Assembly (NCBI RefSeq): GCF_964213995.1
Contig: NC_135819.1
Coordinates: 1,426,001 to 1,490,000 of the forward strand
DNA from: Mustelus asterias
Taxonomy: Eukaryota
Direction: 5' to 3'
DNA: 64,000 nt
Shown here: positions 3,001 through 50,825 of the stretch, piece by piece
Numbering within the stretch: position 1 is the stretch's first letter
Layout of the letters: each line of letters begins with the position of its first letter
Notes under the pieces: model-generated
What the model saw: the letters and a program-made list of their open reading frames with translations, nothing else
What the model was told of the DNA's origin: nothing
Databases searched by the model: none
Position numbers and translations under genes: made by a program

Positions 3001-6000
3001 AAACCTTAACATCCCTGTTTTTGTATTCTAGTCCTCTTGAAATCAATGCTAATATCCTATTTGCCTTCCTAACTACATGGGCATGCGTGAATGGGTGGGA
3101 TTGGAGTCACAAGGAGGGATCACCAGTGATGGAGATGGCGGGGGAAGTGGGAGGGCACGGGTTCAGATGCCAAGACAGGAGGTTGCCTTTCAGTGACACC
3201 GCTCCCCTGCCCCCTCATCACCCCACCATGCTAGGCCCCTTGATCGGGCACTGAGTGCTGGTCAAAGAGGGATGAACCCCACCTCACCCCACTGAGGCCT
3301 AAGGAAATTCCGGCAGGGGGCCCGATTTTAACAAGTTGGTAAAGTCGGGCGTGAGGCGAGTAGCGCGATCCGCGACCGCCTCCACGCCTGTTCCCCCTTT
3401 CCCAAGCACCCAAAATGGCCGCGATCGGCATAAGACATAGGAGCAGAATTAGGCCACTCGGCCCATCGAGTCTGCTCCGCCATTCAATCATGGCTGATAT
3501 TTTTCTCATCCCCATTCTCCTGCCTTTTCCCCATAACCCCTGATCCCCTTATTAATCAAGAGTTTAGAATGATGAGGGGGGGATCTCATTGAAACCTGCA
3601 GAATACTGAAAGGCCCGGATAGAGTGGACATGGGGAAGATGTTTCCATTAGTAGAAAGACTAGGATCCGAGGGCACAGCCTCAGAGTAAAGGGATGACCC
3701 TTTAGAACCGAGAGGAGGAGGAATTTCTGCAACCAGTGGGTGGCGAATCTGTGGAATTCATTGCCACAGAAGGCTGTGGAGTCCAGGTCATTGAATGCAT
3801 TTCAGACTGAGATAAATAGGTTCTTGATTGGTGAGGGGATCAAAGGTTACGGAGAAAAGACAGGAGACTGGAGTTGAGAAACATATCAGCCATGATTGAA
3901 TGGCGGAGATGATTCGATGGACTGAATGGCCTGATTCTGCTCCTATAACTTATGGTCTGGCGGGGGGGGGGGGGGGGGCGGGGGGGTGGAAGCGGGGGTT
4001 GGAGGGGGGGGTGCAGCCATTAGAGGATCAGGTTTTATTCTCTCTTGTGTTGGGTCCAGTACATCTGGAGCGTTCTCTGTTTGTGAGGTAGATGCAGAGC
4101 TTTACCTAAGGTAGGGGTTGTCCAATTTGTGTTTCCTGCTTTGCGTAAGCCCAGAGCAGCTGCTACCACAGCGCTTTCCATATTTTCCAGGAATTGGCTG
4201 GCTACTTTGTGTTTCTCTGTATCGCTTGCATTTTTCCAATCCGTTACATTGCTGAGTAGACCTTCTGCAAAATGAAGAACCGTCTGCCGAGTAAAGCAAT
4301 GCGTTATTTTTGAGTGAAGGCAGAAATAAATTTTTTTCAACACATTCAAGAAAGAAATATTGTTCTTCTGAATAACATTGAACAGTCATGTGAATAAATG
4401 GCACGCCGGTAAAGATCGGAATAATCACACACAAACTAATGTTACTTGCTTTATTACTATTAGGGCGGCATGGTGGCACAGTGGTTAGTGCTGCTGCCTC
4501 ACAGCGCCAGGGACCCGAGTTCAATTTTGGCCTCGGGTGACTGTCTGTGTGGAGTCCACATGTTCTCCCTGTGTCTGCGTGGGTTTTCTCTGGGGGTTCC
4601 GGTTTCTTTCCACACTCCAAAGATGTGTAGGTTAGATGGATTGGCCATGCTAAATTGCCCCTTAGTGTCCAAAGATGTGTGGGTTAGCTGGATTGGCCAT
4701 GCTAAATTGCCCCTTAGTGTCCAAAGATGTGTGGGTTAGCTGGATTGGCCATGCTAAATTGTCCCTTAGTGTCCAAAGATGTGTGGGTTAGCTGGATTGG
4801 CCATGCTAAATTGTCCCTTAGTGTCCAAAGATGTGTGGGTTAGCTGGATTGGCCATGCTAATTGCCTCTTACTATCGAAAGATGTGTGGGTTAGGTTGAG
4901 TGGCCATGCTAAATTGACCCTTAGTGTAGGGGGACTAGCAGGTTGAATACATGCGGGGAGAGGGCCGGGGTGGGATAGTTGTTGGTGTAGGCTTGATGAG
5001 CCAAATGGCCTCTTTCTGCACTGTAGGGATTCTATGGATTACTCCCACAGTTTTCTTTCTTCACGACACAAATTAAAAAAAACTGTTCAAAATGAATAAA
5101 AGGAGATCTGAACAGATCAGGTACAGTGTGATAGGCTAGAGTTATTTTCCTTAGAGGAGAGGAGGCTAAGGGGTTGACCTAATTGAGGTGTATATCACAT
5201 CTCGGCCTTTTGGCCAAAATCAAGCTTCAGATCAAGTCCAAGATGGGACTTATCTTGTCAACTTGGATCATGTTGTCTCTCTTGGGGGGCGGCCATGAAT
5301 TGGAAATAGAATTGGAGCAAGCAAAGAGATGGACTCAGATATGCACGATCCACACTTAACATTGGCTTTGTAACTTTAAGAATGGAGTAAAAATTTAAAT
5401 TAAAAATTGAAGTGTATGATATTATGAACGGCCCAGACAGGATAGACAGGAAAGATTACAGCCGGCACAGCAGCACAGTGGTTAGCACTGCTGCCTCTCA
5501 GCGCCAGGGACCAGGGAGGCGCCAGTGCTAACCACTGTGCCACTGTGCCACCCAACAATTTCTTCTACCACTCTGACAAAGGATCATCCAGACTCGAAAC
5601 GTTCTCTCTCCACAGATGCTATCAGGCCTGCTGAGAATTTCCAGCATTTTCTGCTCATTGCAGTGTTCATGTCAGCCTACTTGCGACACTAATATAAAAA
5701 CTTTAAACTTTTTGCTGCGTTACAATGAGTGGCAAATTTTTTTTCTCTCTTCTTTGGCCGGGGCAGCCACGATGGGCTGAATGGTTCCTTTCCTATCCCT
5801 GTAACCGCATGTATTCACCTTGCTAATCCCCCTTTCTGCAGTGTAACCTGTCCATGGTTCCATCTGTGACTGGCTAAAGCTTGTCATTAATCTCCCAAGG
5901 AGTATTACCAGACTAAATAATTCACAGCAAGAAGCCAAGGGAGGAGATTTTTGTAAAATAGATGCTGCAGATACAAATTCAAAATAAAAACAGAAAATAC

Positions 6001-9000
6001 TGGAAAAACTCAGCAGGTCTGGCAGTGTCTGTGGAGCGAGAAACAGAGTCAATGTTTTGAGTCCCTACGACTCTTCTACAGAGTTCAAGCGAGGTAGAGG
6101 TGTGGCAGGTTTTATGCTGAGGCGATTTTAGGACTGATATGCAAAAAGAACTTGGTCAAATCAGCAGATTTTAAGGAACATGTTAAAGGAGGACAGGGAC
6201 AGACTGAGAGACTGAGAGGTTTACAAAGGGAATTCCAGAGCTTAGGGCAAACACATCATCAATGGTGAGGCAAGGGGAATCAGGGATGCAAAGTAGGCCT
6301 AAAATAGAGGGATACAGAGTTCTCAACAAACATAATATCGTCATTGGCAGCAAGGGAAGCGAACATCGTTTGTGAAAGTGGTGGCGTTGGAGGCAGTTTA
6401 GAGGAGGTTCACCAGACTGATTCTGGGGATGAAAGAACAAAGAAAATTACAACACAGGGACAGGCCCTTTGACCCTCCAAGCCTGCACTGAAAGGGTTGT
6501 TGTATGAGGAGAGATTAAACAGTTTGGGCTTATACTCGCTGGAGTTTAGAAGGATGAGAGGGGATCTGATCGAGGAATATAAAATACTAAAAGGGATTGA
6601 TAACAGTAAATGTAGATCAAATGTTTCCCCGTGTGGGGAACCTCGAACAAGAGGCCACGGGTATAGGTTGAGAGGCGGTAGATTTAAAACTGAGATGAGG
6701 AAGAACTACTTGTGGCAGAGGGTGGTGAATTTGTGGGACTCGCTGCCCCATCGCGCGGGGGAGTCTGAATCATTGAATGGTTTCAAGAAGGAGATAGATA
6801 TAGAGATAGATTTTTTTTTAAAAACAGGTTAAAGGGAGATGGGGAACAGGTGGGGAGGTGGATTTGAGACCAGGGAGAGATCAGCCATGATCTGATTGAA
6901 TGGAGGAGCAGGCTCAAGGTGCTGATTCCTTTGACTCCCTTTGGACCCCATCACTCGCTGAGGTCAGCAACATCACCACTACTTTCTGTCAATAAGAGCT
7001 CTGCTGGTAAAATGTTCCTCATAATTAGACATGAATTAGACTTTGCCTTTGAGAATTCAGCACGGGTAAAGGATTCCGAGACTCACCTGCACAGGAACAA
7101 CAGCTCCAGCATCGTTGCACACCTTCTTGTCTAAGATTGTGGACTGATTCATGAAGCGACAGATCAGGGAATCAGCATTCTGTTTGTTTAACACAAAACA
7201 TTGAACACCTGAAGAAACTGCGGCACCATTGACAGTTTTTTCAACGCCACACAAAAAAAATTGGACCAGCATGTGGGTGGTCCACCGCAATGGAGATACA
7301 GATAGATCAAACATTCATCACATCTCTCTCCATGCACCCCCCTCCCCCCCACCCCCCCACACCACCACCTCTTCCATCGAATGACAAAGGGAGCGGCTTG
7401 GGATAATTGATGGGAGATGGGGAGGATGCTTCATCGATACCACAACAGAGAACAACAGAGCCTCTTCCAAGGCATGACGCTGAGCAGAAATAAAACAGCA
7501 ATCTCCTCAAGCTGTCAATCATTTCAGACTGTCATTCCCCTCAGGCTGTCAATCCCCTCACCCCAGACATTCTCTCTTCCGCCTCCTTCCGCCGAGAGAA
7601 AGATACAAATGTCGGAGGTCACGTATCAACTGACTCAAGCACAGCTTCTTCCCTGCTGCTGTCAGACTTTTGAATGGACCCATCACACATTAAGCTGATC
7701 TTCCTCTACGCCCAGGACCCGATTTTACCATTGCGTTGCGCCCTATTTCGGGCGCAAAAACTTGGTAAAATCGGGCGTGAGGCGAGTAGCATAATCCGCG
7801 CCCACCTCCGCGCTGGTTCCCCCCTTACCAAGACCCGAAAATGGCCACGATTGGGACTTTTTTGCATGCATTTAAATTGACTTAATGGGCTGCACGCCCA
7901 ACCTTACCGGCACTTCCCCTTTCCCACGCATTCGCCCAACCAGAGTCGGCGCGAAACAGACATGGCAGATTCGGGCGCTCCAGTTATTGAGGAGTAAGTG
8001 CCGAGCGTCCGATGGCTCTCTGCTTGAGATCGGAGTAGGAGGAAGGTGGGGTCCGCTGCCAGTCTGCCTGAGATTGGTGAGGGGGAAAGGGGGGTCCGCT
8101 GCCACTCTGCCTGAGATCGGTGAGGGGGAAAGGGGGGTCCGCTACCACTCTGCCTGAGATCAGTGAGGGGGAAAGGGGGGGTCCGCTGCCACTCTGCCTG
8201 AGATCGGTGAGGGGGGAAGGGGGTGTCCGCTACCACTCTGCCTGAGATCAGTGAGGGGGACAGGGGGGTCCACTGCCACTCTGCCTGAGATCAGTGAGGG
8301 GGAAAGGGGGATCCACTGCCACTCTGCCTGAGATCAGTGAGGGGGAAAGGGGGGTCCACTGCCACTCTGCCCGAGATCAGTGAGGGGGAAAGGGGGGGTC
8401 CGCTGCCACTCTGCCTGAGGTCAGTGAGGGGGAAAGGGGGGTCCGCTACCACTCTGCCTGAGATCAGTGAGGGGGAAAGGGGGGTCCACTGCCACTCTGC
8501 CTGAGATCAGTGAGGGGGAAAGGGGGGTCCACTGCCACTCTGCCTGAGATCAGTGAGGGGGAAAGGGGGGTCCGCTGCCACTCTGCCTGAGATCAGTGAG
8601 GGGGAAAGGGGGGTCCACTGCCACTCTGCCCGAGATCAGTGAGGGGGAAAGGGGGGGTCCGCTGCCACTCTGCCTCAGGTCAGTGAGGGGGGGAAGGGGG
8701 TGTCCGCTACCACTCTGCCTGAGATCGGTGAGGGGGAAAGGGGGGTCCGCTACCACTCTGCCTGAGATCAGTGAGGGGGGAAAGGAGGGTCCGCTGCCAC
8801 TCTGCCTGAGATCGGAGGGAGAAAGGGGGGTCCGCTGCCACTCTGCCTGAGATCGGTGAGGGGGAAAGGGGGAGTCCGCTGCCACTCTGCCTGAGATCGG
8901 AGGGGGAAAGAGGGGTCCGCTACCACTCTGCCTGAGGTCAGTGAGGGGGAAAGGGGGGTCCGCTACCATTCTGCCTGAGATTGGTGAAGGGGGAAGGGGG

Positions 9001-12000
9001 TCACAATCGGTCTGGGTGGCAGGGGTGTGGGGGCGATAAGGGGGTCAGTAATGTTGTGTGGGTGGGGCAGTGTCTGTGGGGGTCAGGGGGAGGCATTATC
9101 CGGCCCAGGAGGGAGGTGGTAGGGGAGCAGCATTCTATGCGCAGTTGGAGGCGCCGATTGGTGCTGCAGGATTTCGGGCATGTTAAGCCCCGCCCACAGG
9201 TTTCTGCAGGATGATTGGGAATCGCTGGTATTTTTTCAGGCAGAGTGTGTATGGGAACGCCGGAGAACAGGTCGACACTCCCAGTTTCAAGTCCGCCCAG
9301 CACTTCGAATGAAAATGGTAAATTAGGTCCCCCTATCTGACTGTAACATTACATTCTGCACCCTCTCCTTTCCTTCTCCCCAATGTACTCTATGAAAGGT
9401 ATTTTTGACACTTTTCATCGCAAACCAACACGTGACAATAATAAATCAAATCAAAGAATGTTACAGAGACTGAACAGCAGCAGTTTAGATTAGTTTAGAT
9501 CAGTGTAGATTGCGGTCTGGTTTTACAGCAGCCATTTTACTCTGAATGTCTTCGCAGCCACTGTAACTTGTAGACTGAGTGGTCATGTGACGTCACGACG
9601 ACAAAAGGGTCATGTGACGGGAGCGTGGGAGTTCTCCCTCAGCACAGCACAAGCACTGGAGTAGTGGCTCAGCAAGTGAAGAAAGTATCGCTTGTAACAA
9701 GTCCTTGGCTGCCATTGTTTCAGGAATGATGTGGAGATGCCAGCGTTGGACTGGGGTAAACACAGTAAGAGGTTTAACAACACCAGGTTAAAGTCCAACA
9801 GGTTTATTTGGTAGCAAAAGCCACACAAGCTTTCGGAGCTCCAAGCCCCTTCTTCAGGTGAATGGGAATTCTGTTCACAAACAGGGCATATAAAGACACA
9901 AACTCAATTTACAGAATAATGATTGGAATGTGAATACTTACAGCTAATCAAGTCTTTAAGATACAAACAATGTGAGTGGAGAGAGCATTAAGACAGGTTA
10001 AAGAGATGTTTATTGTCTCCAGACAGGACAGCCAATGAGACTCTGCAGATCCAGGCAAGTTGTGGGGATTACAGATAGTGTGACATGAATCCAATATCCC
10101 GGTTGAGGCTGTCCTCACGTGTGCGGAACTTGGCTATCAGTCTCTGCTCAGCGACTCTGCGCCATCATGTGTCATGAAGACCGCCTCGGAGAACGCTTAC
10201 CCAAATATCAGAATGCCCGTGACCGCTGAAGTGTTCCCTAACAGGAAGAGAACTGTCTTGCCTGGTGATTGTCCAGCGGTGTTCATTCATCTATTGTCGC
10301 AGCATCTGCATAGTTTCCCCAATGTACCATGCCTCGGGACATCCTTTCCTGCAGCGTATCAGGTAGACAACGTTGGCCGAGTTGCAAGAGTATGTACCGT
10401 GTACCTGGTGGATGGTGTTCTCATGTGAGATGATGGCATCTGTGTCGATGATCCGGCATGTCTTGCAGAGGTTGCTGTGGCAGGGTTGTGTGGTGTCGTG
10501 GTCACTGTTCTCCTGAAGGCTGGGTAGTTTGCTGCGGACAATGGTCTGTTTGAGGTTGCGTGGTTGTTTGAAGGCAAGAAGTGGGAGTGTGGGGATGGCC
10601 TTGGCGAGATGTTAATCTTCATCAATGACATGTTGAAGGCTCCGGAGGAGATGCCGTAGCTTCTCCGCTCCGGGGAAGTACTGGACGACGAAGGGTACTC
10701 TGACCACCGTGTCCCGTGTTTGTCTTCTGAGGAGGTCGGTGCGGTTTTTCGCTGTGGCGCGTCGGAACTGTTGATCAATGAGTCGAGCGCTATATCCTGT
10801 TCTTATGAGGGCATCTTTCAGCGTCTGGAGGTGTCTGTTGCGATCCTCCTCATCCGAGCAGATCCTGTGTATACGGACGGCTTGTCCGTAGGGGATGGCT
10901 TCTTTAACGTGTTTAGGATGGAAGCTGGAGAAGTGGAGCATTGTGAGGTTATCCGTGGGCTTGCGGTATAGCGAGGTGCTGAGGTGACCGTCCTTGATGG
11001 AGATGCGTGTGTCCAAGAATGCAACCGAGTAGTCCACGCTGAGTCTGATGGTGGGATGGAACTTGTTGATGTCATCATATAGTTGTTTCAGCTCCTCCGG
11101 AGCCTTCAACATGTCATTGATGAAGACGAACATCTTGCCAAGGCCATCCCCACACCCCCACTTCTTGACTTCAAACAACCGCACAACCTCAAACAGACCA
11201 TTGTCCGCAGCAAACTACCCAGCCTTCAGGAGAACAATGACCACGACATCACACAACCCTGCCACAGCAACCTCTGCAAGACGTGCCGGATCATCGACAC
11301 AGATGCCATCATCTCACATGAGAACACCATCCACCAGGTACACAGTACATATTCTTGCAACTCGGCCAACGTTGTCTACCTGATACGCTGCAGGAAAGGA
11401 TGTCCCGAGGCATGGTACATTGGGGAAACCATGCAGACGCTGCGACAACGGATGAATGAACACCGCTCGACAATCACCAGGCAAGACTGTTCTCTTCCTC
11501 TTAGGGAGCACTTCAGCGGTCACAGGCATTCGGCCTCTGATATTCGGGTAAGCGTTCTCCAAGGCGGCCTTCACGACACATGACGGCGCAGAGTCGCTGA
11601 GCAGAAACTGATAGCCAAGTTCCACACACATGAGGACGGCCTCAACCGGGATATTGGATTCATGTCACACTATCTGTAATCCCCACAACTTGCCTAGAGC
11701 TGCAGAGTCTCACTGGCTGTCCTGTCTGGAGACAATAAACATCTCTTTAACCTGTCTTAATGCTCTCTCCACTCACATTGTTTGTATCTTAAAGACTTGA
11801 TTAGCTGTAAGTATTCACATTCCAACCATTATTCTGTAAATTGAGTCTGTGTCTTTATATGCCCTGTTTGTGAACAGAATTCCCATTCACCTGAAGAAGA
11901 GGCTTAAGGCTCCGAAAGCTTGTGGCTTTTGCTAACAAATAAACCTGTTGGACTTTAACCTGGTGTTGTTAAACTTCTTACATTGTTTCAGGAATCCAGT

Positions 12001-15000
12001 GCCTCTCCAATATCTGAAAAGCCGAGGGGTTCAAAATTCGTTCTGTGCCATTTTTTTTCGCTTTTGGTTGGGTGGGCAGGAATCGCGACTCACAACCGAC
12101 CCACATCCAGTGAAGTGGAGGGAGCCAAGGCACAATATTGACCTTGTTCAACTGATAGTCCCCTCGGGCCAACCTGCTGGCAACATCTGTGCCCAGGAAA
12201 GCATTTGGCATCAGTAGCACCATCTGCGGCGGTACAACAGATCTCAATTCTCCCTCACCCGCACCTCCACAAGATACTAAATGTGTAGAACTGGGAGATA
12301 AAGCAGCTTAAGCATGAACATGGAAAACTCTTACCGACTGGCATTCTGCAGCAGAGTCAAGAGTTCCATTATCCGAAAGACATTTAAAAGGACGATCTGA
12401 AAACACAAACCAGATATTTAACCTCCCAAATTTCCAATGGGTAAGTAATTAGCCATAGTCCCCAATAGAACAGAGGCACCTCGCTCTAATGCAGGATGGA
12501 TGCAATATGGAAAGCACCCTTCCCGGATGTATCACTGCTTGGTCTGGCTCCTGCTCTGTCCAAGGCCGCAAGAAACTACAGAGGGTTGTGAATGTAGTCC
12601 AGTCCATCACGCAAACCAGCCTCCCATCCATTGACTCTGTCTACACTTCCCGCTATCTCGGAAATGCAGCCAACATAATCAAGGACCCCATGCACCCCAG
12701 ACATTCTCTCTTCCACCTTCATCCATCAGGAAAGAGATACAAAAGTCTGAGATCACGTACCAACCGATTCAAGAACAGCTTTTTCCCTGCTGCCATCAGA
12801 CTTTTGAATGGACCTACCTTGCATTAAGTTGATCTTTCTCTACGCCCTAGCTACGACTGTAACACTACATTCTGCTTTCCCTCTCCCCTATGTACTCTAT
12901 GAATGGAATTCTTTTTCTGTATAGCGCGCAAGAAACAATACTTTTCACTGTATCCCAAAACATGTGACAATAATAAATCAAACCAAATCAAATCAAAAAA
13001 AGCTTGAGGGGCATCATTTTGCAATCATGGGGCAAGGCAAGGAGGCTTCCTTGAGCTATCACAGCCGATCCGGGGATTGAACCCATGCCACTGGCATCGT
13101 ACACCAACCACCTGATCCAAACAACACCCAGTTGGTAATGGACATTAAGGAGAACTTTGTTCCTGGGAAAGGAGTATTGTGTACAGTTCTGGGTGCCACA
13201 CTATAGGAACCCCATAGAACCCCACTAAAAATTCCATCGAGTCTGCACCAACTAATTCCAGCCTTGGATCACTGACTGTGTGGAGTGTGCACGTTCTCCC
13301 CGTGTCTGCCTGAGTTTCCATCGGGTGCTCCTGTTTCCTCCCACAGTCCAAAGATGTACTGGTTAGGTGGATTGGCCATGCTAATTTGTCACTTAAAGTC
13401 CAAAGAGGTGCAGGTTAGGTGGATTGGCCACGGTAAATGCACGGGGCTAGGGGGATAGGATGGTAAGGGGGTGGGCCTGGGTAAGATGCTCTTTTGGGGA
13501 GTCGGTGCTGTCGCAATGGGCCGAATGGCACTGTAGGGATTCTATGGATTCAGCAGTGAATTGTGAAATATAGGAAGACAAAGTCAGTCACTGAAAATCA
13601 GATCAATTGTATGAACTCACCGTCCTTAACGCTGAGGATTATATCTTCTTTCTTGTTATTACCTCCGCTATATTCTACCCGGCAGCAGTACGGACCCTCA
13701 TCTCCCATGGTCACATTGTGTATAGTGAGAGAGACGTTACCTCGCTCAATGTCCCCAGACATGCTGTATTTTGTGTTTAAACGATAGATGATATTTTTCC
13801 CATCAGTTTTAAGCAACACTTTGCTGCAGGAAAATGCAGACATATCACAACACCCGTCTTGACCCCAACACATTGCAGCTAAACCATAATAGGTAACGTT
13901 GTAGGTGCAAGGCAGGCTGACCGAGGATCTCAACTTCCCACTGATCTGCAATGCCTCTGCAAAAAGGAATGGAAATTACATTCAGAGTCTGTCATATGGA
14001 GGAGGACATGTTTCCAAAGCAGCTGAATCACAACAACTGAATCAGAACACTTTTAAGATTAGTGTCTGCAGATTTAACCCGAAGAATGTGGAGTTGCAAA
14101 ATTAAGCGGCTGCTGCTGTTGTGGAACAGGGGGGCAGGAGAAAGCCAGTTACCCCCTCAAGCCAATATAGAAAGCATCTTGTCCGGATGTATCACAGCTT
14201 GGTATGGCTCCTGCTCTGAACAAGATCGCAAGAAACTACAAAGGCTTGGGATCGTAGCCCAGTCCATCACGCAAACCAGCCTCCCATCCATTGACTGGGT
14301 CTACACTTCCCGCTGCCTTGGAAAAGCAGCCAGCATAATCAAGGATCCCACGCATCCTGGACATTTTCTCTTCTACCTTTCCCCGTTGGGAAAAAGATAC
14401 AAAAGTCTGAGGTCCTGTACCAACCGACTCGAGAACAGCTTCTTCCCTGCTGCTGTCAGACTTTTGAATGGACCTACCTTGCATTAAGTTGATCTTTCTC
14501 TGCGCCCTAGCGATGGTAAAAGCACGGGGCTAGGGGGATAGGATGGCAAGGGGGTGGGTGTGGGTAAGATGCTCTTTCTGGGAGTCGGTGCTGACTCAAT
14601 GAGCCGAATGGCACTGCAGGGATTCTATGGATTCAGCAGTGAATTGTGAAATATAGGAAGACAAACTCAGTCACTGAAAATCAGATCAATTGCATGAACT
14701 CACCGTCCTTAACGCTGAGGATTATATCTTCTTTCTTGTTATTACCTCCGCTATATTCTACCCAGCAGCAGTACGGACCCTCATCTCCCATGGTCAAATT
14801 GTGTATAGTGAGAGAGACGTCACCTCGCTCAATGTCCCCAGACAAGTTGTATCTTCTTTTCAAATCATACGTGATTTTTTTCCCAACAGTTGCAAACAAC
14901 ACGTTGGAACAGAAAAGTGCAGACATTTCAGAGCACCCGCCTTGACCCCAACACATTGCAGCTAAACCATAATAGGTAACGTTGTAGGTGCAAGGCAGGC

Positions 15001-18000
15001 TGACCGAGGATCTCAACTTCCCACTGATCCGCAATGCCTCTGCAAAAAGGAATGGAAATTACATTCAGAGTCTGTCATATGGAGGAGGACATGTTTCCAA
15101 AGCAGCTGAATCACAACAACTGAATCAGAACACTTTTAAGATTAGTGTCTGCAGATTTAACCCGAAGAATGTGGAGTTGCAAAATTAAGCAGCTGCTGCT
15201 GTTGTGGAACAGGGGGGCAGGAGAAAGCCAGTTACCCCCTCAAGCCAATATAGAAAGCATCTTGTCCGGATGTATCACAGCTTGGTATGGCTCCTGCTCT
15301 GAACAAGATCGCAAGAAACTACAAAGGCTTGGGATCGTAGCCCAGTCCATCAGTCAAACCAGCCTCCCGTCCATTGACTCTGTCTACACTTCCCGCTGCT
15401 TCGGAAAAGCAGCCAGCATAATCAAGGACCCCACGCACCCCGGACATTCTCTCTTCAACCTTCTTCCGTTGGGAAAAAGATACAAAAGTCTGAATGGAGC
15501 TACCTCGCATTAAGTTGATCTTTCTCTACGCCCAAGCTATGACTGTAAGACTACATTCTGCACTCTCTCCTTTCCTTCACCCCTATGTACTCTATGAATG
15601 GTATGCTTTTTCTGTGTAGTGCGCAAGAAACAATACTTTCCACTGTATCCCAAAACATGTGACAATAATAAATCCAATCAAAAAAAGCTTGAGGGGCATC
15701 ATTTTGCAATCATGGGGCAAGGCAAGGAGGCTTCCTTGAGCTATCACAGCCGATCCGAGGATTGAACCCATGCCACTGGCATCGTACACCAGCCAGCTGA
15801 TCCAAACAACACCCAGTTGGACATTCAGGAGAACATAGTTACTGGGAAAGGAGTATTGTGTACAGTTCTGGGTGCCACAGTACAGGATTCCCGTAGAACC
15901 CCATAGAATCCCATAGAATCCTTACAGTGCCCGTCAAGTCTACACTAGCCAGTTCTGGCCTTGTGACTGTCCATGTGGAGTTAGCACATTCTCCCCATGT
16001 CTGCGTGCATTTCCTCCCCGTGCTCCAGTTTCCTCCCACACTCCAATGATGTGCAGGTTAGGTGGATTGACCATGGTAAGTTGTCCCTTAGTGTCCAAAG
16101 ATGTGCAGGTTAGGTGGATTAGCCATGCTAAATTGCCGCTTAGTGTCCAAATATGTGCAGGTTAGGTGAATTGGTCACACTAAGTTGCCCCTAAGTGTCC
16201 AATGAACAAAGAACAAAGAAAATTACAGCACAGGAACAGACCCTTCGGCCCTCCAAGCCTGCACCAACCATGCTGCCCGACTGAACTAAAACCCCTACTC
16301 TTCCGGGGACCATATCCCTCTATTCCCATCCTCTTTATGTATTTGTCCAGATGCCCCTTAAAAGTCACTATAATATCTGCTTCCACTACCTCCCCCGGCA
16401 TGCAAGTTCCAGGCACCCACCACCCTCTGTGTGAAAAACCTGCCTCGCACATCTCCTTTAAACCTTGCCCCTCGCACCTTAAACCTGTGCCCCCGAGTAA
16501 TTGACTCTTCCACCCTGGGAAAAAGCTTCTGACTATCCACTCTGTTCATGCCTCTCATAATCTTGTAGACTTCTATCAGGTCGCCCCTCAACCTCCGTCA
16601 TTCCAGCGAGAACAAACAAAGTTTCTCCAACCTCTCCTCCAAATCTTTTCTGTACCCTCTCCAAAGCCTCCACATTCTTCTGGTAGTGTGGCGACCAGAA
16701 TTGAACACTATATTCCAAGTGCGGCCTAACTTAGGTTCTATAAAGCTGCAACATGACTTGCCAATTTTTAAACTCAATGCCCCGGCCGATGAAGGCTAAC
16801 CGTCTTGACTACCTGATTCACCTGCATTGCCACTTTCAGTGACCTGTGTACCTGTACACCCAGATCCCTCTGCCTATCAATACTCTTAAGGGTTCTGCCA
16901 TTTACTGTATATTTCCCATCTGCATTAATCCTTCCAAAATGCATTACTTCACATTTGTCCGGATTAAACTCCAGCTGCCATCTTTCCTCCCCAAGTCTCC
17001 AACCGATCTATATCCTGCTGTATCCTCTGATGGTCCTCATCGCTTTCCGCAATTTCACCAACATTTGTGTCATCCACAAACTTACTAATCAAATCAATTA
17101 CATTTTCCTCCAAATCATTTATATATATTACAAACAGCAAAGGTCCCAGCGCTGATCCTTGAGGAATGCCACGAGTCGCAGCCCTCCATTCAGAAACACA
17201 CCCTTCCATTACTACCCTCTGTCTTCTATGACCAAGCCAGTCCTGTATCCACCTTGCTAGCTCACCTCTGGCCCATGCGACTTCACCTTCTGCCATGAGG
17301 GACCTTGTTAAAGGATTTACTGAAGTCCATGTAGACAACATCCATTGCCCTACCCTCATCAATCATCTTCGTCACTTCCTCGAAAAACTCGTTCAAGTTA
17401 GTGAGACACGACCTCCCCTTCACAAAACCATGCTGCCTCTCACTAATACGTCCACTTATTTCCAAGTGGGAGTAAATCCTGTCTCGAAGAATCCTGTCCA
17501 ATAATTTCCCTACCACTGATTTAAGGCTCACCAGCCTGTATTTACCTGGATTATCCTTGTTACCCTTCTTAAACAAAGGAACAACATTGGCTATTCTCCA
17601 ATCCTCTGGGACCTCCCCATAGCCAGTGAGGATACAAAGATTTCTCTCAAGGCCCCAGAAATTTCCTTCCGTGCCTCTCTCAGTATTCTGGGGTATATCC
17701 CATCAGACCCTGGGGACTTGTCTACCTTAATGTTTCTCAAGACCCCCAATACCTCTCTTTTTAATCTCAACATGACCCAAACTATCTACACATTCTTCCC
17801 CAGATTCATCATCCACCAAGTCTTTCTCTTCGGTGAATACCAACGCAAAGTATTCATTTAATACCTCGCCCATTTCCTCTGGCTCCACGCATTGATTCCC
17901 TCTCCTGTCCTTGAGTGGACCAGCCCTCTCCCTGGCTATCCTCTTGCTCTTTGTATATGTATAAAAAGCCTTGGGATTTTCCTTAATCCTGCTGGCCGAT

Positions 18001-30000: not shown

Positions 30001-33000
30001 CCAGGCAGGGAGAATTCGGTTTGGAGTGAGAGGCAGCCAGGCGTTCCCCTGCCTGTTCTTTTCATTACTGCCAAGGAGGACAGCATTCAGCGCACTCGAC
30101 CTACGTTGCTGCAAGGATAGCTCGCAGCACCTCTGCCTCCTGCGGCATCATCTTCCACACGTGTGTCTCTCCTGGACTGTGTGTGGGTGTCGTGAGTAAC
30201 TGGTGGGGACTATACAGTCCAACTGGATCAGTATCTACGAATGTGTTACGGAGGATGAGTTTCCCCATATGTGCACCAACGGTTGAAGATCAGAGCTCAC
30301 TGTTTTATGTCTGTTAATGATATGTGTTATTAAATTTATTTTTGATATTCCGACTTACAGTACTGACATTTATGGGTAAACAGGGAATTAGCCAAATCAA
30401 CATCAACCGCTAGGAATTCGGGATCCTGTTGATTGAATATTTAAATAGTAGCCCCATATAGTGGTCAGCAGGGGGTTACATATATATTACAAATATTATA
30501 ATAGCCTAGCAGTAAGACCACTAGGCCGTCACCTCCCCAACTCAACTGGGCTGAGATGACTCACACACCAGTTAGGCTTCAAACAGAAGAATGTAACTTA
30601 CAACGTTTGCTTCTAATCAGGCTTCAGGTGATTGACAGATAACCGCCACTCAGCTATTTGGGTGGGGGTAGTTCCTTTTTACCAACTAACTAGGCCACTA
30701 AACTTATAACTGAAAAAAACCCAGGAAAATTAGATTTATCACATAGCTCTTCAAATACCATCCTGCTCCAAATTACCAAATTTCAATCCCACTCTGGCAG
30801 TCTCACGCATGTGCGCAATGCTTACCAGTGATGTGCAGGTTGGGTGGATTAGCCATGGTAAATGTATGGGGTTAGAGGGATAGGGTGGCAAGGGTGTGGG
30901 CCTGGGTAAGATGCTCTTTCGGGGAGTTGGTGCAGATTCAATGGGCTGAATGGCCTCCTTCTGCACTGTAGGAATTCTGTAAAGTTAAAGTTTATTTATT
31001 AGTCACAAGTAGGCTGACATTAACACTGCAATGAAGTTACTGTGAAAATTCCTTAGTCGCCACAGTCTGGTGCCTGTTTGGGTCAATGCACCTAACCAGC
31101 ACGTCTTTCAGACTGTGAGAGGAAACCGGAGCACCCGGAGGAAACCCACGCAGACACTGGGAAAACGTGCAAACTCCGCACAGACAGTGATCCAAGCCAA
31201 GAATCGAGCCCAGGTCCCTGGCGCTGTGAAGCAACAGTGCTAACCATTGTTCTATCATGCCACCTCCTTGGTTTACCAGTGATGTGCAGGTTAGGTGGAT
31301 TAGCCATGGTAAATGCATGGGGTTAGAGGGATAGGGTGGCAAGGGGGTGGGTGTGGGTAAGATGCCTTTTCGGGGAGTTGGTGCTGACTCAATGGGCCGA
31401 ATGGCACTATCGGGATTCCATGTATTCAGCAGTGAATTGTGAAATATAGGAAGACAAATTCAGTCATAGGTCATCAGATCACTGCGTGAACTCACCCGGC
31501 TTAACGCTGAGGATTACATCTTCTTTCTTGTCATTGAACGGTCCGCTATATTCTACCCGGCAGCAGTACGGACCCTCATCTCCCATGGTCAAATTGTGTA
31601 TCGTGAGAGAGACGTCACCTCGCTCAATGTCCCCAGCCAAGTTGTATTTTGTGTTAACACGCGAGATGATACTTTTCCCATCAGTTTTAAGCAACTCGTT
31701 GCTACAGGAATATGCAGACATTTGAGAGCACCGGTCTCGAACCCAACACATTTCAGTTAAACCATAATAGGCAACGTTGTAGGTGCAAGGCAGGGTGACC
31801 AAGGATCTTAACTTCCCACTGATCCGCAATGCCTCTGCAAAAAGGAATGGAAATTACATTCAGAGTCTGTCATATGGAGGAGGACGTGTTTCCAAAGCAG
31901 CTGAATCACAACTGAATCAGAACACTTTTAAGATTAGTGTCTGCAGATTCAACCCAAAGAATGTGGAGGTGCAAAATTAAGCGGCCTCTGCTGTTGTGGA
32001 ACAGCGGGGACAGGAGAAACCCAGTTACCCCCCCTCAAGCCAATTCCACCAGTCCATGAAATCTTGGCTGAGCTTCAACCTAATTGCAAGGCCTCACCTT
32101 AACCTCATATCCCTTTGGTTAACGAAAAGCTATCAATCAATCCCCTAGTTAGAGGGGAGTTTTCCCCTCCCGCCCGCCACGGGAATCGTATCAGGTGGGA
32201 CAAAATCCCGCCCTTGCACCAATTGCCATTTGCATTCAAGAGTTCCAAACCTCGACATAGAAACATAGAAACTAGAAGCAGGCCCTTCGCGCCTGCTATG
32301 TCATTCATTTTGATCATGACTAATCATCCAATTCAATATCCTGATCCCGCCTTCTCCACATATCCCTTGATCCCTTCAGCCACAAGAGCTGTGGCCGGGA
32401 TTCTCCCAAAATAATTCTAAGTCCCCAGTGTGCAGAAAAAAGGGAGTAAACCCTGATTTTTTTTAGCATGATTTCCAAAAAGAATCTTCGCCACTCTGTG
32501 CATCACAGAATGCCTCAGCGGGATTCCCTCTGGAAATTTGTGGGCAATGCCTATTCCCACCCGGGAGGCTGGCACCATAGGGCTGAATGGAATATTGCGC
32601 ATGCGCCGATCTGTCAGTGCGAAGATTGACTCATGCACGGTGACCCTACATTGCCGGCCTCCCAATCACTGGCCAACCCTGCAACCGTCCCATCGCTGGC
32701 CTCCCCGACCTCCACCAGGCAGCCGCGATCTCCCCACCCCCTCGGGCAGACCCGATCTCCCGATCCCACCACCCCCCCGACAGTCCCGACCCTCCAGCAG
32801 CCCTGACCCACTCTCCATACCCGATCACCTCTTTCCACGCTCTCCCAGTCATCCCAATGCAGAAAGGCAATGGATCCCCCCATCCCCACCAATTGCCCCC
32901 CCCCATTAGGCCCTGCCCCCCAATAGGCCCTGCGCCCTCTGGCCCCACCCCCTTTGGCACTGCCAGTTTGCCCCTTGGGCAATGCCAGGGGCCAGGCTGG

Positions 33001-36000
33001 CACTGCCCAGAGAGCACCCCCCCTAACCTTCGACCTCCTGGGGGGGCCTCAATGGCCTCTCTTCCCTCCAGCGGAATAACCCCCTACATCTAATTCCTTC
33101 TTGAAATCACGCAACGTTTTGGCCTCAACCACTTTCTGTGGGAGTGAATTCCACACATTCGCCACTCTCTGGGTGAAGAAATTTCTCCTCACTTCAGTCC
33201 CACAAGGTTCTGGACTGCCCCGCCATCGGGAACAATTTTTATGTCAGGAGTGCTTCCAAATTTCACTCCTGAAAAGTGTGCCTCTAATCTTTTGACTCTA
33301 CCTCCTGATCCTAGACTCCTCCAACCAGCAGAAATAGTTTCTCTCTTTGTACACTGTCTGTTCCTTTTAATATCTTATTTAAGACTTAGATTAAATCTTC
33401 TAAATTCTGGCAAATGCAACCCTAACCTCCCCTGGTGGTGTAACAACAGGAGTCCAGCTCTCATTCTGGTAAATCGACATTGCACTTCCCCCTGGACCAT
33501 ATCCTTCCGAAAACTGCCCTCACTACTCTAGGTGTGGTCTATACTGTCACCACAGGCCCAGAGGCCCATGGGCTGCTCTCCCCTTTGAGGTGGTGAGAGC
33601 TGACTGGTGGTGATTTAACCTGAGGGTCACCACACCTCAGGCAGGGGGGGGGGGGGGGGGGGCAAGGTTGAGAAGGCCTTTATGGATAATCTCAGCCGGT
33701 ATGGGAATTGAACCCACGCTGTTGGTGTCATACTGCATCACTAACCAGCCATCCAGCCAACTGAGCTAACTGACCCCCAGGTATGGTCTAACCAGGGTTT
33801 TGTATAGTTGAAGCATGACCGCTACCTTGTATGTTTTTTTTTACTTGATTTGTAGGATGTGGGCATCACTGGATGGTTTCAAGCTTCTTGAGTGTTGTTG
33901 GAGCTTCACGTATCCAGGCATGTGGCGAGCATTCCATCACACTCCTGCCTTGTGGGCAGCACGGTGGCACAGTGGTCAGTGCTGTTGCCTTACAGTGCCA
34001 GAGACCTGGGTTCAATTCCCAGCCTCAGGTCACTGTCTATGCGGAGTCTGCACATTCTCCCCATGTCTGCGTGGGTTTCCTCCGGGTGCTCCAGTTTCCT
34101 CCCACAGTCCAAAGACGTGCTGGTTAGGGTGCATTGGCAATGCTAAATTCTCCCTCAGTGTACCCGAACAGGCGCCAGAGTGTGGCGACTAGGGGATTTT
34201 CACAGTAACTTCATTGCAGTGTTAATATAAGCCTACTTGTGGCACTAATAAATAAACCTAAACTTTAGATGGTGGACAGGCTTTGGGGAGTCCAGAAGTA
34301 ATTCAAAAAAGGCTTTTGCTTGCAGAGAATAGGTCCCTGTGTATGAATGTCTGTCACTCCAAGCAAATATAAACGAATCATGTTACAAGCTGGTTATTTT
34401 AAACTCAGGACTGTTCAGCAAGTGCTGCCTCATCATGAAATCATATCTAACAGTAGACCTTTTGGAGCACACCGTTGTATCCGTCCTGATTGAGTGCAGG
34501 GTGAAAAGTATCACCAACTTGTCTTTCTCTTCATCAATATGTATATGCATTTCACTGGAGGAACTACTCGGCTTTTGTGTGGAGACTTTTGCTGCAGTTC
34601 ACAGAGAATCTCTTTGAGTACACTGTTATAGTATAGTTATTTAAACAGCCTCCTGTTTGCCAAGTAAATGAACTGGTTTGCCGTAGTGCTCTGTGAGTCC
34701 CTCGGTAATCCCACCTTACCTCTGACCCACCGGCTGCCATGGTGGTGTCAATAGGCACTCTGATGAAGGCTCAGTGAGTTGTACAATGCCTGAGAATGTG
34801 GGTGAGGCCGATTCAAGTGTGGCGTTCAAATGGGAATTGGTTAAGTACTTGACATGGTAGAACAATATTGCAAGGCTGTGTGGGAGAGGGCGGGGGAATG
34901 GGGCGAGTTAAATTGTTCTTGCAGAGGGCTAGCACAGGAATAATGGCTGAATGGCCTCTTTGCTGTAACTATTCTATAAGTCTTTGAATTCTAAATGGGC
35001 ATGGAATTTTTTTTTTATTCATTCGTGAATGCTGGCCAGCATTTATTGCCCATCCCTAGTTGCCCCTTGAGAAGGTGGTGGTGAGCTGCCTTCTTGAATC
35101 GCTGCAGTCCGCGTGCTGTGGGTTGACCCACAATGCCATTAGGGAGGGAATTCCAGGATTTTGACCCAGCGACTGCAAAGGATCGGCGATATATTTCCAA
35201 GTCAGGATGGTGAGTGGCTTGGAGGGGAACTTGCAGGTGGTGGTGTCCCATGTATCTGCTGCCCTTGTCCTTCTAGATGGAAGTGATCGTGGGTTTGGTG
35301 CTGTCTAAGGATCTTTGGTGAATTGCTGCAGTGCATCTTGTAGATGGTACACACTGCTGCTACTGGGCGTCGGTGGTGGAGAGAGCAGGTGCTTGTGGAT
35401 GTGGTGCCAATCTAGCGGGGCTGCTTTGTCCTGGATGGTGTCGAGCTTCTTGAGTGTTGTTGGAGCTGCACCCATCCAGGCAAGTGGGGAGTATTCCATC
35501 ACACTCCTGACTTGTGCCTTGTCGATCTCCCTCGCTCTTTGTTAATTTAAAATACATACACAATATATCTGCCTTATTGAAAATTCTTGGTTACTAGGAA
35601 AGATTACCGGTATGAATTGGCTAATACACAGCAGATTGTGGAGTTATATTTATTGTTACAAGGTTGAGTATAATTGAGGAGTTGACTTAGGTAGATTGGC
35701 CGTGCTAAATTCTTTCTCAGTGTACCTGAACAGGCGCCGGAGTGTGGCGACTGGGGAATTTTCACAGTAACTTCATTGCAGTACTAATATAAGCCTACTT
35801 GTGACTAATAAATAATAAATAAATACAAATGCTTCATAACTTACCGGATTGGTGAATGTTTTGATTCCAAATGATCCAATGAAAAACAGCTAGGAAACAA
35901 AAAATTGTGATTCGCTTAGATTACGTGCAAACAGTTTTTTTTTGGAAATACATCAAGGCCAGGGTTTTCCCGCCCTTCACACCGGCTGGATCTTCCAGTC

Positions 36001-39000
36001 CCACTGTCGGCAACCCTCCGCCGTGGCTACCCCGGCGATGAGGGGTGCATTCAACGGGAAACTCTGTAGACAGTGGCGGGACCGGAAGATCCCGCCGCCA
36101 GCCAAAGGCGGGCCACCTCCACCGCTGTGGAACACACGATAATTTGCGTGGAAAATCCCGCCCCCAGGAGTTTTTGTTAAATTGGCAGAGATTCTCTACC
36201 TCCATTTTCAACGGACAGGAAAGCTGGCGGGGAGGACAATCCAATGGGAGTCCCCAGGAGTCTTTCACGCCAGCGGGATTTCCCATTCCGATTGTCCCAA
36301 TTACGCCAATGATGTATTAGCGTTCCCGCCATGAAAGGTCAGGAGATCATGGTGTCCATGGTAACCATACTCAGTTAAAACATGACAAAATTCCACCCAT
36401 TGAGTTTTTGGAGTTCACTGGAAAATTATCAAATAAAATTTGATACCAAGGCGCAAGATAACATAGCCATACATTAATACATCATTAGTGAGGCTTCCCA
36501 GTCTATTATCTCCCACATCACAATCAGGGTTTACAACACATCCTGATCACTGAGAACTGGCAAAGTGAATCTGTCGAGGGAGCGCAGGTAAGTACCCCTG
36601 TGGGGAGGGGGGGTTAGCAGTGAGGGTCAGACCCTTCCTCATTGCACACCCTTGTTGAACTGCATTACGGTGTGGAACGGCAGTCGCTCCATTTCTGACC
36701 GGAAAACTCTGCTGCCGGTAGTCAAAACTGCCCAATACATCACCCAGCTACCAGCCACCCAGGACATTTATCACAAACGCTGCCTGAGGAGATCTCTCAG
36801 CATTACTAGAGATTCCACCCATCCCAGCCACAGACTGTTTGCCCCCTCTGCCTTCTGGGAGGCGCTACAGATCCGTTCGAGCCCGTCAGACCAGGTTCAG
36901 GAACAGCTTCTTCCCCAGAGCTGTTACCCAGCTGCACTCTGTCCTTCAACATATTTCCAGGCGATGGGCATTGTGCAATATGCATGGACACACTTAATGA
37001 CTCGCGACACTATTTTATAATGACCACTTGCATTTGCTTTTTTTTTTGTATCTCAGGAACCTGCAAGCTCACTTTCCGTTAGATTCGTATTTGTGCACCT
37101 TACAATGACAATAAAGCTGAACTGAATTCCCCAGGCACTATTAGGGTACTGCCGGGGGTGGGTGGGAGGAGTGGCGGGGGGGGGCGGGGGGGGGGCAGTG
37201 CTGGGGTAGCCATCTTCAAGTGGGGAGGTCAATACATGGGGGAATGGTTCCCTGTGCCCATTGTGTGGGTGGTGCTTCCTGTAGGGAAGGGATGGGTAGG
37301 GATTTCCTTGAGTGTGAAGGAGGGGGTGAGGAGCCTCATGTCCATGGAGGAAGGGGGGGGAACGTGTGTGGGGGGGGACGTGCGGGGGTGGGAACGTCTG
37401 GGGGTGGGAACGTCTGGGGGTGGGAACGTGTGGGGGTGGGAATGTGTGGGGGTGGGAACGTGTGGGGGTGGGAAAGTGTGGGGGTGGGAACGTGTGTTGG
37501 GGTGGAAACGTGTGGGGGTGGGAACGTGTGGGGGTGGGAATGTGTGGGGGTGGGAACGTGTGGGGGTGGGAAAGTGTGGGGGTGGGAACATGTGGGGGTG
37601 GGAACGTGCGGGGGTGGGAACGTGTGGGGGTGGGAACGTGTGTTGGGGTGGAAACGTGTGGGGGTGGGAACGTGTGGGGGTGGGAACGTGTGGGGGTGGG
37701 AAAGTGTGGGGGTGGGAACATGTGGGGGTGGGAACGTGTGGGGGTGGGAACGTGTGGGGGTGGGAATGTGTGGGGGTGGGAACGTGTGGGGGTGGGAAAG
37801 TGTGGGGGTGGGAACATGTGGGGGTGGGAACGTGTGGGGGTGGGAAAGTGTGGGGGTGGGAACATGTGGGGGTGGGAACGTGTGGGGGTGGGAACGTGTG
37901 GGGGTGGGAACGTGTGGGGGTGGGAACGTGCGGGGTGGGGACATGCGTGGGGAGAACGTGCATGGGGGAGACGTGTGGGGGTGGGAATGTCTGGGGGTGG
38001 GAACGTCTGGGGGTGGGAACGTGTGGGGGTGGGAACGTGTGTTGGGGTGGGAACGTGTGGGGGTGGGAACGTGTGGGGGTGGGAACGTGTGGGGGTGGGA
38101 ACGTGCATGGGGGGAACTTGCGTGGGGGGAATGTGTGGGGGGGGGGAAACGTGTGGGGAGGGACGTGCGTGGGGGGGGGGGGAACATGCCGGGGGGGGGG
38201 GGGGGGGTCCTTTTGTTTCTTTTTCTTTTATTTTGATCAGGGCTCCTTTTAAAAACAACACCATGATCTCCTGAAGTCCGAGGTTGTTGCTGGGGAGGAG
38301 GCTTTTTTAGAACCCGCCCTACATCGTGCCACCCATCACCGAGAGCATTTATCTTTAACTAAGTTTAAGGAGAAATGGCGGGACAATCCAGCAGTGCAGT
38401 TGGCGGGCGACACACACCTTTTCCCCGCCCAAGTTGACAAAGTTAAAACATGACAAAATTCCACCCATTGAGTTATTGGAGTTCACTGGAGAATTACCAA
38501 ATAAAATTTGAAATCAAGACACAAAACACGACATCAGGACCGACAGGCTTTAGGAAGGGAAAGTTAGAGTGGGAATTTTCTTTTTTTCATTTATTCTTTC
38601 ACAGGTTGGCACAGTGGTGAGTACCGCTGCCTCACAGCGCCAGGGACCCAGGTTCAATTCCGGCCTTGGGTCACTGTCTGTGTGAAGTTTGCACGTTCTC
38701 CTGTGTCTGCGTGGGTTTCCTCCGGGTGCTCCGGTTTCCTCCAACACTCCAAAGATGTGTGGGTTCGGTTGATTGGTCTTGCTAAATTGACCCTTAGTGT
38801 TAGGGCAACCAGCAGGGTAAATAGGTGGGGTTGGGGGGATAGGGCCTGGGTGGGATTGTGGTCGGTGCAGACTCGATGAGCCGAATGGCCTCCTTCTGCA
38901 CTGTAGGGATTCTACGATAAGGTTGTTGGTATCACTGGCCAGGTCAGCATTTGTTGCCCATTCCTAATTGCCCCTTGGGATCAAGATGAATCTGGATAGA

Positions 39001-49930: not shown

Positions 49931-50825
49931 CATAGAATAGAATCCCTTGCAGAAGGAGTACATTCGGCCCATCGAGTCTGCACTGACTCTTCAACAGGGC
50001 ACCTTACCCAGGCACTATCCCAATAACCCAACATATTTACCCCACTAATTCCCCTAATCCACACATCCTGGGACATGAAGGGGAAACTTCCCATGGCCAA
50101 TCCACCTAATCTGCATATCTTTGGAAATTAAGGGGCAATTTAGCATGGCCAATCTACCTAACCTGCATGTCTTTGGACACTAAGGGGCAATTTACCATGG
50201 CCAATCCACCTAACCTCCAAATCTTTGGACATTAAGGGATAATTTAGCATGGCCAATGTACCTAACCTACACATCTTTGGACACTGTGGGGCAACTTAGC
50301 AAGGCCAATCCACCTAACCTACACATCTTTGGACACTAAGAGGCAATTTAGCATGGCTAATCCACCTCACCTGCACATCTGTGGACACTAAGGGGCAATT
50401 TAGCATGGCTAATCCTGCACATGTTTGGACACTAAGGGGCAATTCAGCATTGCCAATCCACCTAACCTGCGCATCTTTGGGCACAATTTAGCATGGCTAG
50501 TATTGCTGCCTCACAGCACCAGGGACCCGGGTTCAATTCCCGGCTCCAGGTCACTGTCTGCGTGGAGTCTGCATGCTCTTCCCGTGTCTGCGTGGGTTTC
50601 CTTCGGGTGCTCCGGTTTCCTCCAACACTCCAAAGATGTGTGCGTTAGGTTGATTGGTCTTGCTAAATTGCCCCTTAGTGCCCAAAGATATATGTAGGTT
50701 AGGAGGATCAGCGGAATAAAATATGTGTGGTTACAGGGGATAGGGTTCCAGGGATAGGAAGTGAGATTTGATGCAGACCCGATGGGCCGAATAGCCTCCT
50801 CTTACACTTTTGGGGTTCAATGATC
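49931..50825. mobile_element. Head-to-head HE1-type SINEs; the minus copy has about 8 copies of the 52-bp unit
   Basis: Array at 50085-50495. Plus copy at 50490-50825. Confidence 0.8.

Follow-up and report, generated by a model that had tools for sequence, protein, structure and literature searches.

Adhesion G-protein-coupled receptors (GPCRs) of the ADGRE group (ADGRE1-5, also known as EMR1-4 and CD97) and the TIM proteins TIM-1, TIM-2, TIM-3 and TIM-4 (HAVCR1, TIMD2, HAVCR2 and TIMD4) are the closest described counterparts of a receptor gene of Mustelus asterias that lies partly in contig NC_135819.1 (assembly GCF_964213995.1), positions 1,426,001 to 1,490,000. This stretch of 64,000 nucleotides is referred to as the window, and positions are given in its own numbering unless stated otherwise. 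An original prediction, made from the sequence alone, had read the gene as a TIM and proposed a strong excess of replacement changes between two recently duplicated IgV exons, driven by pathogens.

The ADGRE family is described as numerically unstable, with positive selection in some lineages (PMC8584163), and CD97 as carrying three to five EGF repeats according to splicing (PMC13197933). ADGRB1 (BAI1) and ADGRG1 (GPR56) are listed as phosphatidylserine-binding adhesion GPCRs (PMC13197933). The WFND motif in the FG loop of TIM-1, a metal-ion-dependent site for binding ligands (MILIBS), binds phosphatidylserine, including that of viruses, and the BC, CC′ and FG loops touch viral glycoprotein and phosphatidylserine (PMC9611583); loss of one aromatic residue lowers binding by about 70%, and loss of both abolishes it (PMC8484753).

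The Mustelus gene shares the GAIN domain, the GPS and the seven-transmembrane (7TM) region with ADGRE1-5, sits in an ADGRE-like cluster and resembles CD97 in its variable number of heads. Unlike ADGRE1-5, however, the shark and ray receptor has no EGF domains and instead carries one to three TIM-fold IgV domains, an arrangement seen here only in sharks and rays. Likeness to the TIMs extends to the IgV domain, its six cysteines, the CC′ and FG loops and, in the first domain (D1), the Asn-Asp pair. The receptor differs from them in having neither a mucin stalk nor a single membrane pass, in being coupled to a GPCR, in the absence of the FG-loop Trp and in the lack of the pocket in its second and third domains (D2 and D3).

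Predicted architecture of the receptor

The assignment to the TIM family was not borne out, as the gene carries the marks of an ADGRE-type adhesion GPCR, with GAIN, an intact GPS and 7TM and without mucin. An 840-residue protein labelled adhesion GPCR E3-like contains D2 at 100% identity, a match that was one hit among 101 candidates of the homologue search and is weak on its own. Pfam families matched by that protein, all above cut-off, are V-set (twice), GAIN (2e-8), GPS (8e-13) and 7tm_2 (1e-52). A cleavable GPS consists of His-Leu followed by Ser or Thr and then by a hydrophobic tethered-agonist stretch; a His-Leu-Ser GPS and an agonist-like stretch were present in the receptor proteins P0001-P0003 and in the orthologues inspected. 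The four additional cysteines by which TIM domains fix the CC′ loop were found (six cysteines in D1 and D2, seven in D3), but on its predicted layout the protein is not a TIM family member, because a cysteine-bearing stalk, GAIN and 7TM follow the IgV domains. No EGF family match was obtained on P0001 or on nine V-set-bearing relatives, so that the receptor is, by its domain content, a variant of ADGRE and not a canonical EGF-TM7 member. It is almost certain from these matches that TIM-fold IgV heads are mounted on an ADGRE-type adhesion GPCR.

All coding exons in the window are on the minus strand and have canonical splice sites. Coding exon 1 (48350-48380) holds the ATG, the first 10 codons of the leader and a GT donor, and exon 2 (35845-35889) the rest of the leader, a probable signal peptide. 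These are followed by the IgV exons D1 (31496-31834), D2 (14704-15039) and D3 (13621-13956), a stalk exon with two cysteines after the IgV array (12335-12396) and a further stalk exon before the GAIN domain (7087-7179), the leader and stalk exons having been placed by tblastn of P0001 together with splice sites. GAIN-domain exons at 4106-4283 and 2193-2312 were located by Pfam, tblastn and splice sites, and a third (1-46) leaves the window; the GPS and 7TM exons continue outside it, from G000:C19:1426047 down to about 1401970 in the assembly (G000), where many ADGRE-like genes are clustered. Three isoforms are annotated, containing D1, D2 and D3, D2 and D3, or D1 alone. Two contigs from X3, a second sample among the sequencing runs, stop matching at an IgV acceptor and run on into 4 and 30 letters that do not align, a hint of spliced RNA.

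Nearly all named proteins among the 120 relatives listed (of 1105) are ADGRE or ADGRE-like. Among PDB chains, ADGRE1 was matched at E 1.5e-82 through its 7TM region alone, and full-length ADGRL3 chains scored slightly higher over a longer stretch. The receptor can be assigned more firmly to the E/L group than to E1-4 or E5.

Distribution and phylogeny

V-set combined with 7tm_2 occurred in nine of the 120 listed 7TM relatives, from eight species, all of them elasmobranchs; the remaining 111 lacked the combination. Two partial models with IgV and GAIN add Heptranchias and Rhincodon, and the order leader, IgV, stalk and GAIN is common to the resulting 10 shark and ray species. Searched from the other side, an ADGRE body was present on 4 of the 150 best TIM-like representatives. 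A 7TM tree was built from 33 hand-picked proteins, most of them from the 120 listed, with midpoint rooting only, no ADGRL outgroup and without the partial models P0004, P0046 and P0048; in it the IgV-bearing receptors and one truncated skate model form one branch (Shimodaira-Hasegawa-like approximate likelihood-ratio support 100). The distribution points to a fusion that would have been present before sharks and rays split.

One IgV copy is present in the models of seven species, compared with three in Mustelus, two in Scyliorhinus canicula and three in Pristis. In the IgV tree, from which two Chelonia fragments of <85 residues were dropped, D1-D3 form a clade (100/99) apart from the Scyliorhinus copies, and the three Pristis copies hardly differ from one another. 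On this tree, the IgV exon is seen to have expanded independently in the three lineages. The IgV tree does not gather the receptor heads into one clade, but its deep forks are open and its bootstrap support unsettled, and a single origin may still hold. The join between IgV and 7TM, which appeared in no transcript here, is supported by NCBI models from several species, by reading frame and by phase.

Other non-EGF heads occur on ADGRE bodies in other lineages, by annotation only: turtle ADGRE-like models carry PF17517 and caecilian models PF02140 with PF00040 (P0197, P0227 and similar). Head swapping would thus recur in the ADGRE family. Databases carry the shark and ray proteins under generic ADGRE names, and no description of a TIM-headed ADGRE receptor was found in the literature, searched mainly as openly accessible work and by titles and abstracts. 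The main text of a vertebrate adhesion GPCR survey lacks the words 'shark' and 'immunoglobulin', while its supplementary accession table could list the genes (PMC8584163), and 'shark', 'TIM' and 'IgV' are absent from most of the text of a 2026 review (PMC13197933). The TIM-headed ADGRE variant of sharks and rays is apparently undescribed.

TIM fold and predicted phosphatidylserine pocket

D1, D2 and D3 are phase 1-1 exons with AG/GT ends, and all three match Pfam V-set above cut-off. Structural comparison with Foldseek returned TIM-1, TIM-2, TIM-3 and TIM-4 as the best 16 matches listed, with template-modelling scores of 0.80-0.89 and a root-mean-square deviation of 1.4 for the top match; a second search was likewise headed by TIM structures. 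The FG loop of D1 contains Phe-Asn-Asp, a predicted metal and phosphatidylserine pocket. That of D2 is one residue shorter and has neither the Asp nor an aromatic residue, and the conserved F-strand Arg is replaced by Trp; D3 has the FG loop of D2 and a seventh cysteine in its CC′ loop. This cysteine (13847-13849) adjoins the CC′ loop cysteine, and an odd cysteine is also seen at the F-strand Arg position in one catshark duplicate and one sawfish duplicate.

Of 15 domains, 12 retain the Asn-Asp pair, including those of all seven species with a single IgV, and each of the 10 species has the pair in one domain or more. Its three losses are all in duplicates (D2, D3 and one catshark copy), and loss of the F-strand Arg is likewise confined to duplicates (three of eight). 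The D1 motif, Pro-Phe-Asn-Asp, is partial relative to WFND, and TIM-3, with Leu-Met-Asn-Asp, has been solved with phosphatidylserine. Against strong binding stands the Trp of WFND, which occurs in none of the domains and whose absence makes any binding by D1 perhaps weak. Judged from its residues, D1 probably binds phosphatidylserine, perhaps weakly. D1-bearing isoforms would then resemble BAI1 and GPR56 in their predicted working mode; in those receptors, which belong to other subfamilies, binding is by thrombospondin repeats or the GAIN domain and not by a TIM IgV domain. Mouse TIM-2 presumably also lacks the pocket.

Tandem duplication and gene conversion

A tandem duplication at 13432-15493 holds D2 and D3; its two homologous units of 979 bp, 13432-14410 and 14515-15493, are offset by 1083 and have 57 differences. 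The near-identity noted earlier for the intron at 13957-14166 was reproduced exactly (1 difference from the D2 unit in 210 bases). It is, however, part of a longer tract at 13858-14269, which spans that intron and the 5′ third of the D3 exon and has 2 differences in 412 bases from its partner at 14941-15352. Going through the units, divergence was 12/189 in the downstream intron, 3/136 in the 3′ part of the exon, 25/108 in a variable block, 1/92 in the 5′ part of the exon, 1/210 and then 1/104 in the upstream intron, and 14/140 far upstream; the baseline given by the other flanks is 6-10%. The length of the tract exceeded that expected from random placement of differences (permutation P 5e-5, and again P 5e-5 with non-coding sites alone). 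The tract very likely arose by gene conversion. Constraint on splicing elements may contribute, because the intron part is only 5% from D1 and is close in contigs of other organisms. The caution that partial conversion of the intron could inflate the contrast with the exon was therefore right, and use of the intron as a neutral baseline or clock was rejected, since it sits inside the tract.

Sequencing-run reads were compared only over 13560-15250, with 40 of 201 differences listed. X1 contigs, which may come from the assembled sample, match the variable block of D3 over 204 nucleotides and that of D2 over 159 nucleotides, and an X3 contig matches D2 over 204 nucleotides, all with 0 differences; false assembly of the tandem copies is unlikely on this account. 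No joint between IgV exons was seen among the 15 of 95 read joints listed, which stem mostly from a repeat in the stretch. In runs labelled as other organisms, an organism B contig lies 11 letters from D2 over 144 bases (25 from D3 and 32 from D1), and an organism C contig lies 11 letters from D3 over 216 bases (24 from D1 and 27 from D2). As D2-like and D3-like sequences are present in other organisms' runs, the duplication is not very recent and is older than the intron had suggested. X5 and X9 (13660-13662 and 14740-14746) record an extra FG-loop codon in the organism B and C contigs, and in organism B the Asp is kept in most of the depth. Loss of the pocket in D2 and D3 may be recent and passed between them by conversion.

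Record 10 of X3, on 13794-13956, is a fourth IgV sequence that is none of D1, D2 and D3, with 23 other letters and 2 gaps relative to D3. Three of its listed variants are common with organism B contigs, it is absent from the assembly, and its depth is 5.1, with 6.0 for D1 and 12.1 for D2. It could be a D1 allele that has diverged, another copy or a contaminant.

Selection on the loops of D2 and D3

D2 and D3 differ at 21 amino acids over 111 full codons and at 29 nucleotides, with silent differences in four codons (35, 43, 59 and 44, the last a TCC/AGC Ser switch), much as first counted by hand. The concentration of changes reported for the C-C′-C″-D region was also recovered, 17 of the 21 falling in codons 33-65, from the CC′ loop to strand D. 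The variable block comprises codons 31-66 (CC′ loop, C′, C″, C″D loop and D) at 14840-14947 in D2 and 13757-13864 in D3. On an AlphaFold model of D2 (40-sequence alignment; mean predicted confidence, pLDDT, 93) the variable sites map to loops and edge strands of the TIM-fold domain: six in the CC′ loop, three each in C′, C″ and the C″D loop, two in D and four elsewhere, with none in strand C itself. Hypermutation of CpG was rejected as a cause, only 2 of the 25 block differences being of CpG type.

Codon models were fitted with an own three-sequence implementation, not codeml, to the only three DNA sequences, D1-D3. The Nei-Gojobori method (NG86) gave 25.5 replacement and 3.5 silent differences between D2 and D3, with a dN/dS ratio (omega) of 2.27 (P 0.13). 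Across the three domains, model M0 returned omega 2.06-2.65 (likelihood-ratio test against omega = 1, P 0.024-0.077), and M2a was preferred to M1a (P 0.028). The codon model placed no silent change on the D2 branch (P 0.006-0.010), and parsimony, with one codon ambiguous, gave silent to replacement counts of 4.5/20.5 for D1, 0.5/17.5 for D2 and 2/8 for D3. On the binding face, D1 and D2 differ by 29 replacement and 3 silent changes (P 0.010). The site list obtained from M2a by naive empirical Bayes was discarded because the fit is degenerate.

Additional indications came from orthologues. Over 22 columns, one of them an alignment-end artefact, the positions that vary in Mustelus showed 3.6 residues per column among nine non-Mustelus orthologue domains, compared with 2.8 elsewhere (P 0.019), and they overlap with differences between the two catshark domains (8/22 vs 24/115, P 0.049). 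The block was also the least conserved part of the ectodomain in 15 of 15 species pairs. These comparisons lend mild support to diversification of the loops.

Several results weigh against selection on the loops. The D2/D3 pair is not significant alone (P 0.09 at a transition bias of 1.6 and 0.051 at 3), the block taken by itself gives omega 2.6 with P 0.097, and both the D2 branch and the block were picked after inspection of the data. The M2a fit is degenerate (40% of sites at 0 and 60% at 4.3), and conversion breaks its assumption of one tree. Counting the Ser switch at codon 44 as silent reduces pN/pS for D2/D3 to 1.4 (P 0.35) and moves the pooled three-branch test to P 0.07-0.24 and the D2-branch test to P 0.22-0.37. 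The block's own silent rate is high (3.5/24), and some changes in D2 fall at columns conserved among orthologues (Leu, Asp, Lys and an Arg, the last >90% conserved in TIM domains). What stands of the proposed strong excess of replacement is its direction, as all omega point estimates exceed 1; its strength does not, as D2 against D3 alone reaches only P 0.05-0.13. Taken together, the pairwise and site-model checks gave omega 2.1-2.7 with P 0.02-0.13 and are sensitive to one codon. The balance of these codon counts tips slightly towards positive selection on D2 or on the block. The signal is moderate and borderline, and ordinary for an immune-type receptor.

Alternative explanations

The alternative that survives best, though rather unlikely, is that relaxed constraint and conversion acted without positive selection, D2 and D3 being redundant spacers and the block an island left unconverted. 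The conversion tract itself (P 5e-5) and the loss of the pocket residues fit this explanation, and the changes at conserved columns of D2 would also be expected from decay. It is also favoured by whole-exon replacement divergence (26/256), which shows no excess over the unconverted flanks (26/329, P 0.21), by the dependence of significance on one codon and by the high silent rate of the block. Against it, all omega estimates lie above 1 in domains whose six cysteines, Trp and open reading frames are intact in both D2 and D3; the TIM paralogues on G000:C16 have a pairwise pN/pS of only 0.64-1.19 in all six pairs; and a D2-like block is present in another organism's run. At 23%, divergence of the block also exceeds the flank rate after scan correction, the probability that any 108-nucleotide window of the exon reaches 25 differences being 1e-5 to 9e-4 at flank rates of 7.9-10%. 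With a rate of 12% that probability rises to 0.014, and with 14.5%, the silent rate of the block itself, it is 0.12.

A patch copied from an older paralogue or allele, through which the block of D2 or D3 would have inherited its differences, is quite improbable. In favour of a patch are 17 block sites at which D1 and D3 agree against D2, compared with 6 in the other segments compared, a few columns with a D1/D3 state absent in orthologues, four D2 codons with double changes, and the fourth IgV sequence in X3. A donor was sought in the assembly, and none was found: when G000 was searched at DNA level for the D2 block, best candidates scored, only the three copies were returned, and a protein search, likewise with the best candidates scored, gave three close copies followed by IgV exons of TIM genes about 50% identical. 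Moreover, sites shared by D2 and D3 are interleaved through the whole block, by which a single D1-to-D3 conversion tract was also rejected, and D1-D2 silent divergence within the block (2/25.6, or 4/25.6 with the Ser switch) is like the 5-12% of the flanks.

The TIM genes met in this search form a cluster of TIM-like IgV exons (L004-L008 and L010; G000:C16, 61.40-61.56 Mb), with about 50% identity to D2. In L005, too, Arg has changed to Cys and Asp is lost, and L008 and L010 resemble one interrupted copy. A different kind of V-set exon, putatively Siglec-like, forms an array of close relatives (L009 and L012-L018; G000:C20 and C192).

Still less credible is the view of the gene as a TIM that evolves in an arms race against viruses for which TIM IgV domains serve as entry factors. 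The TIM fold, the 6 of 21 differences in the CC′ loop and the contacts made by the TIM-1 loops would suit it; the gene is, however, an adhesion GPCR, with a cysteine stalk and GAIN and no mucin after the IgV domains, and D2 and D3 have identical FG loops. As Asp and the aromatics that make up the WFND pocket are missing from both, the viral-entry route proposed for them, with pressure from viruses acting through phosphatidylserine, is unlikely. Pathogens in general would be a plausible, though rather unlikely, driver of D2/D3 divergence. An assembly or annotation artefact, in which the tandem copy would be spurious or a piece of a TIM gene would have been joined to the GPCR model next to it, can draw on the model-based join and on the possible identity of X1 with the assembled sample, but it is refuted in practice by orthologues with the same domain order in 10 species and by contigs, one from a second sample, that match the blocks without a difference, and is hardly worth entertaining.

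Other features of the locus

An inverted copy of the 3′ part of the receptor (G000:C19:1321379-1339725; L022-L024) covers residues 464-702 of P0002 at 89-99% identity in pieces. Neither a GPS nor upstream exons were present in the stretch examined, and the copy is a partial duplicate or a misplaced haplotype. On the plus strand of the window, 63253-63327 matches at 96% the first 25 residues of the ADGRE-labelled P0193, the N-terminus of which looks atypical. Minisatellites occupy 7995-9043, 37289-38000, 44376-44987 and 49968-50527, with units of 43, 16 and 52 bases, and the 52-base unit is found again in many dispersed repeats. Elsewhere in the assembly (G000:C5, 78.87-79.28 Mb and 98.84 Mb), several long uninterrupted GPS and 7TM matches at about 31% identity are apparently intron-poor adhesion GPCR genes.

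Proposed mechanism and significance

The preferred explanation, held to be probable as a whole, combines TIM heads on an ADGRE receptor with conversion of flanks and framework and moderate selection on loops. A phase 1-1 TIM exon would have taken the place of the EGF exons in an ADGRE gene, earlier than the split of sharks and rays. Through its Asn-Asp metal site, D1 would bind phosphatidylserine exposed on dying cells, vesicles or enveloped particles. Activation by a tethered agonist is the general mechanism of adhesion GPCRs, and here, too, a pull on the cleaved ectodomain would free the agonist and activate G proteins. Gene conversion would have homogenised the flanks and framework of D2 and D3 while selection diversified their ligand-facing loops; D1 would keep the task of the pocket, and D2 and D3, without it, would have been retuned to other, changing ligands, D2 most. 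Splicing among the isoforms would choose the set of heads. A more far-reaching and improbable version makes the TIM head of a phosphatidylserine-sensing GPCR a repeatedly duplicated, splice-selectable cassette, in which one copy would retain the pocket for dying cells, pathogens would drive the extra copies to new specificities, and the first head would have deep allelic lineages shared across species; for the last, the additional IgV sequence in X3 may be cited, with three listed variants in common with another organism's run and a depth close to that of D1 and roughly half that of D2.

TIMs recognise dying cells and enveloped viruses, and adhesion GPCRs turn binding or force into G-protein signals. 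A natural fusion of the two that has lasted since before the divergence of sharks and rays would provide an orphan-type receptor with a predictable ligand, phosphatidylserine, and make it possible to test activation by ligand and by force directly. The fusion is also an example of how the ADGRE cluster evolves by head swapping and repeated exon duplication.

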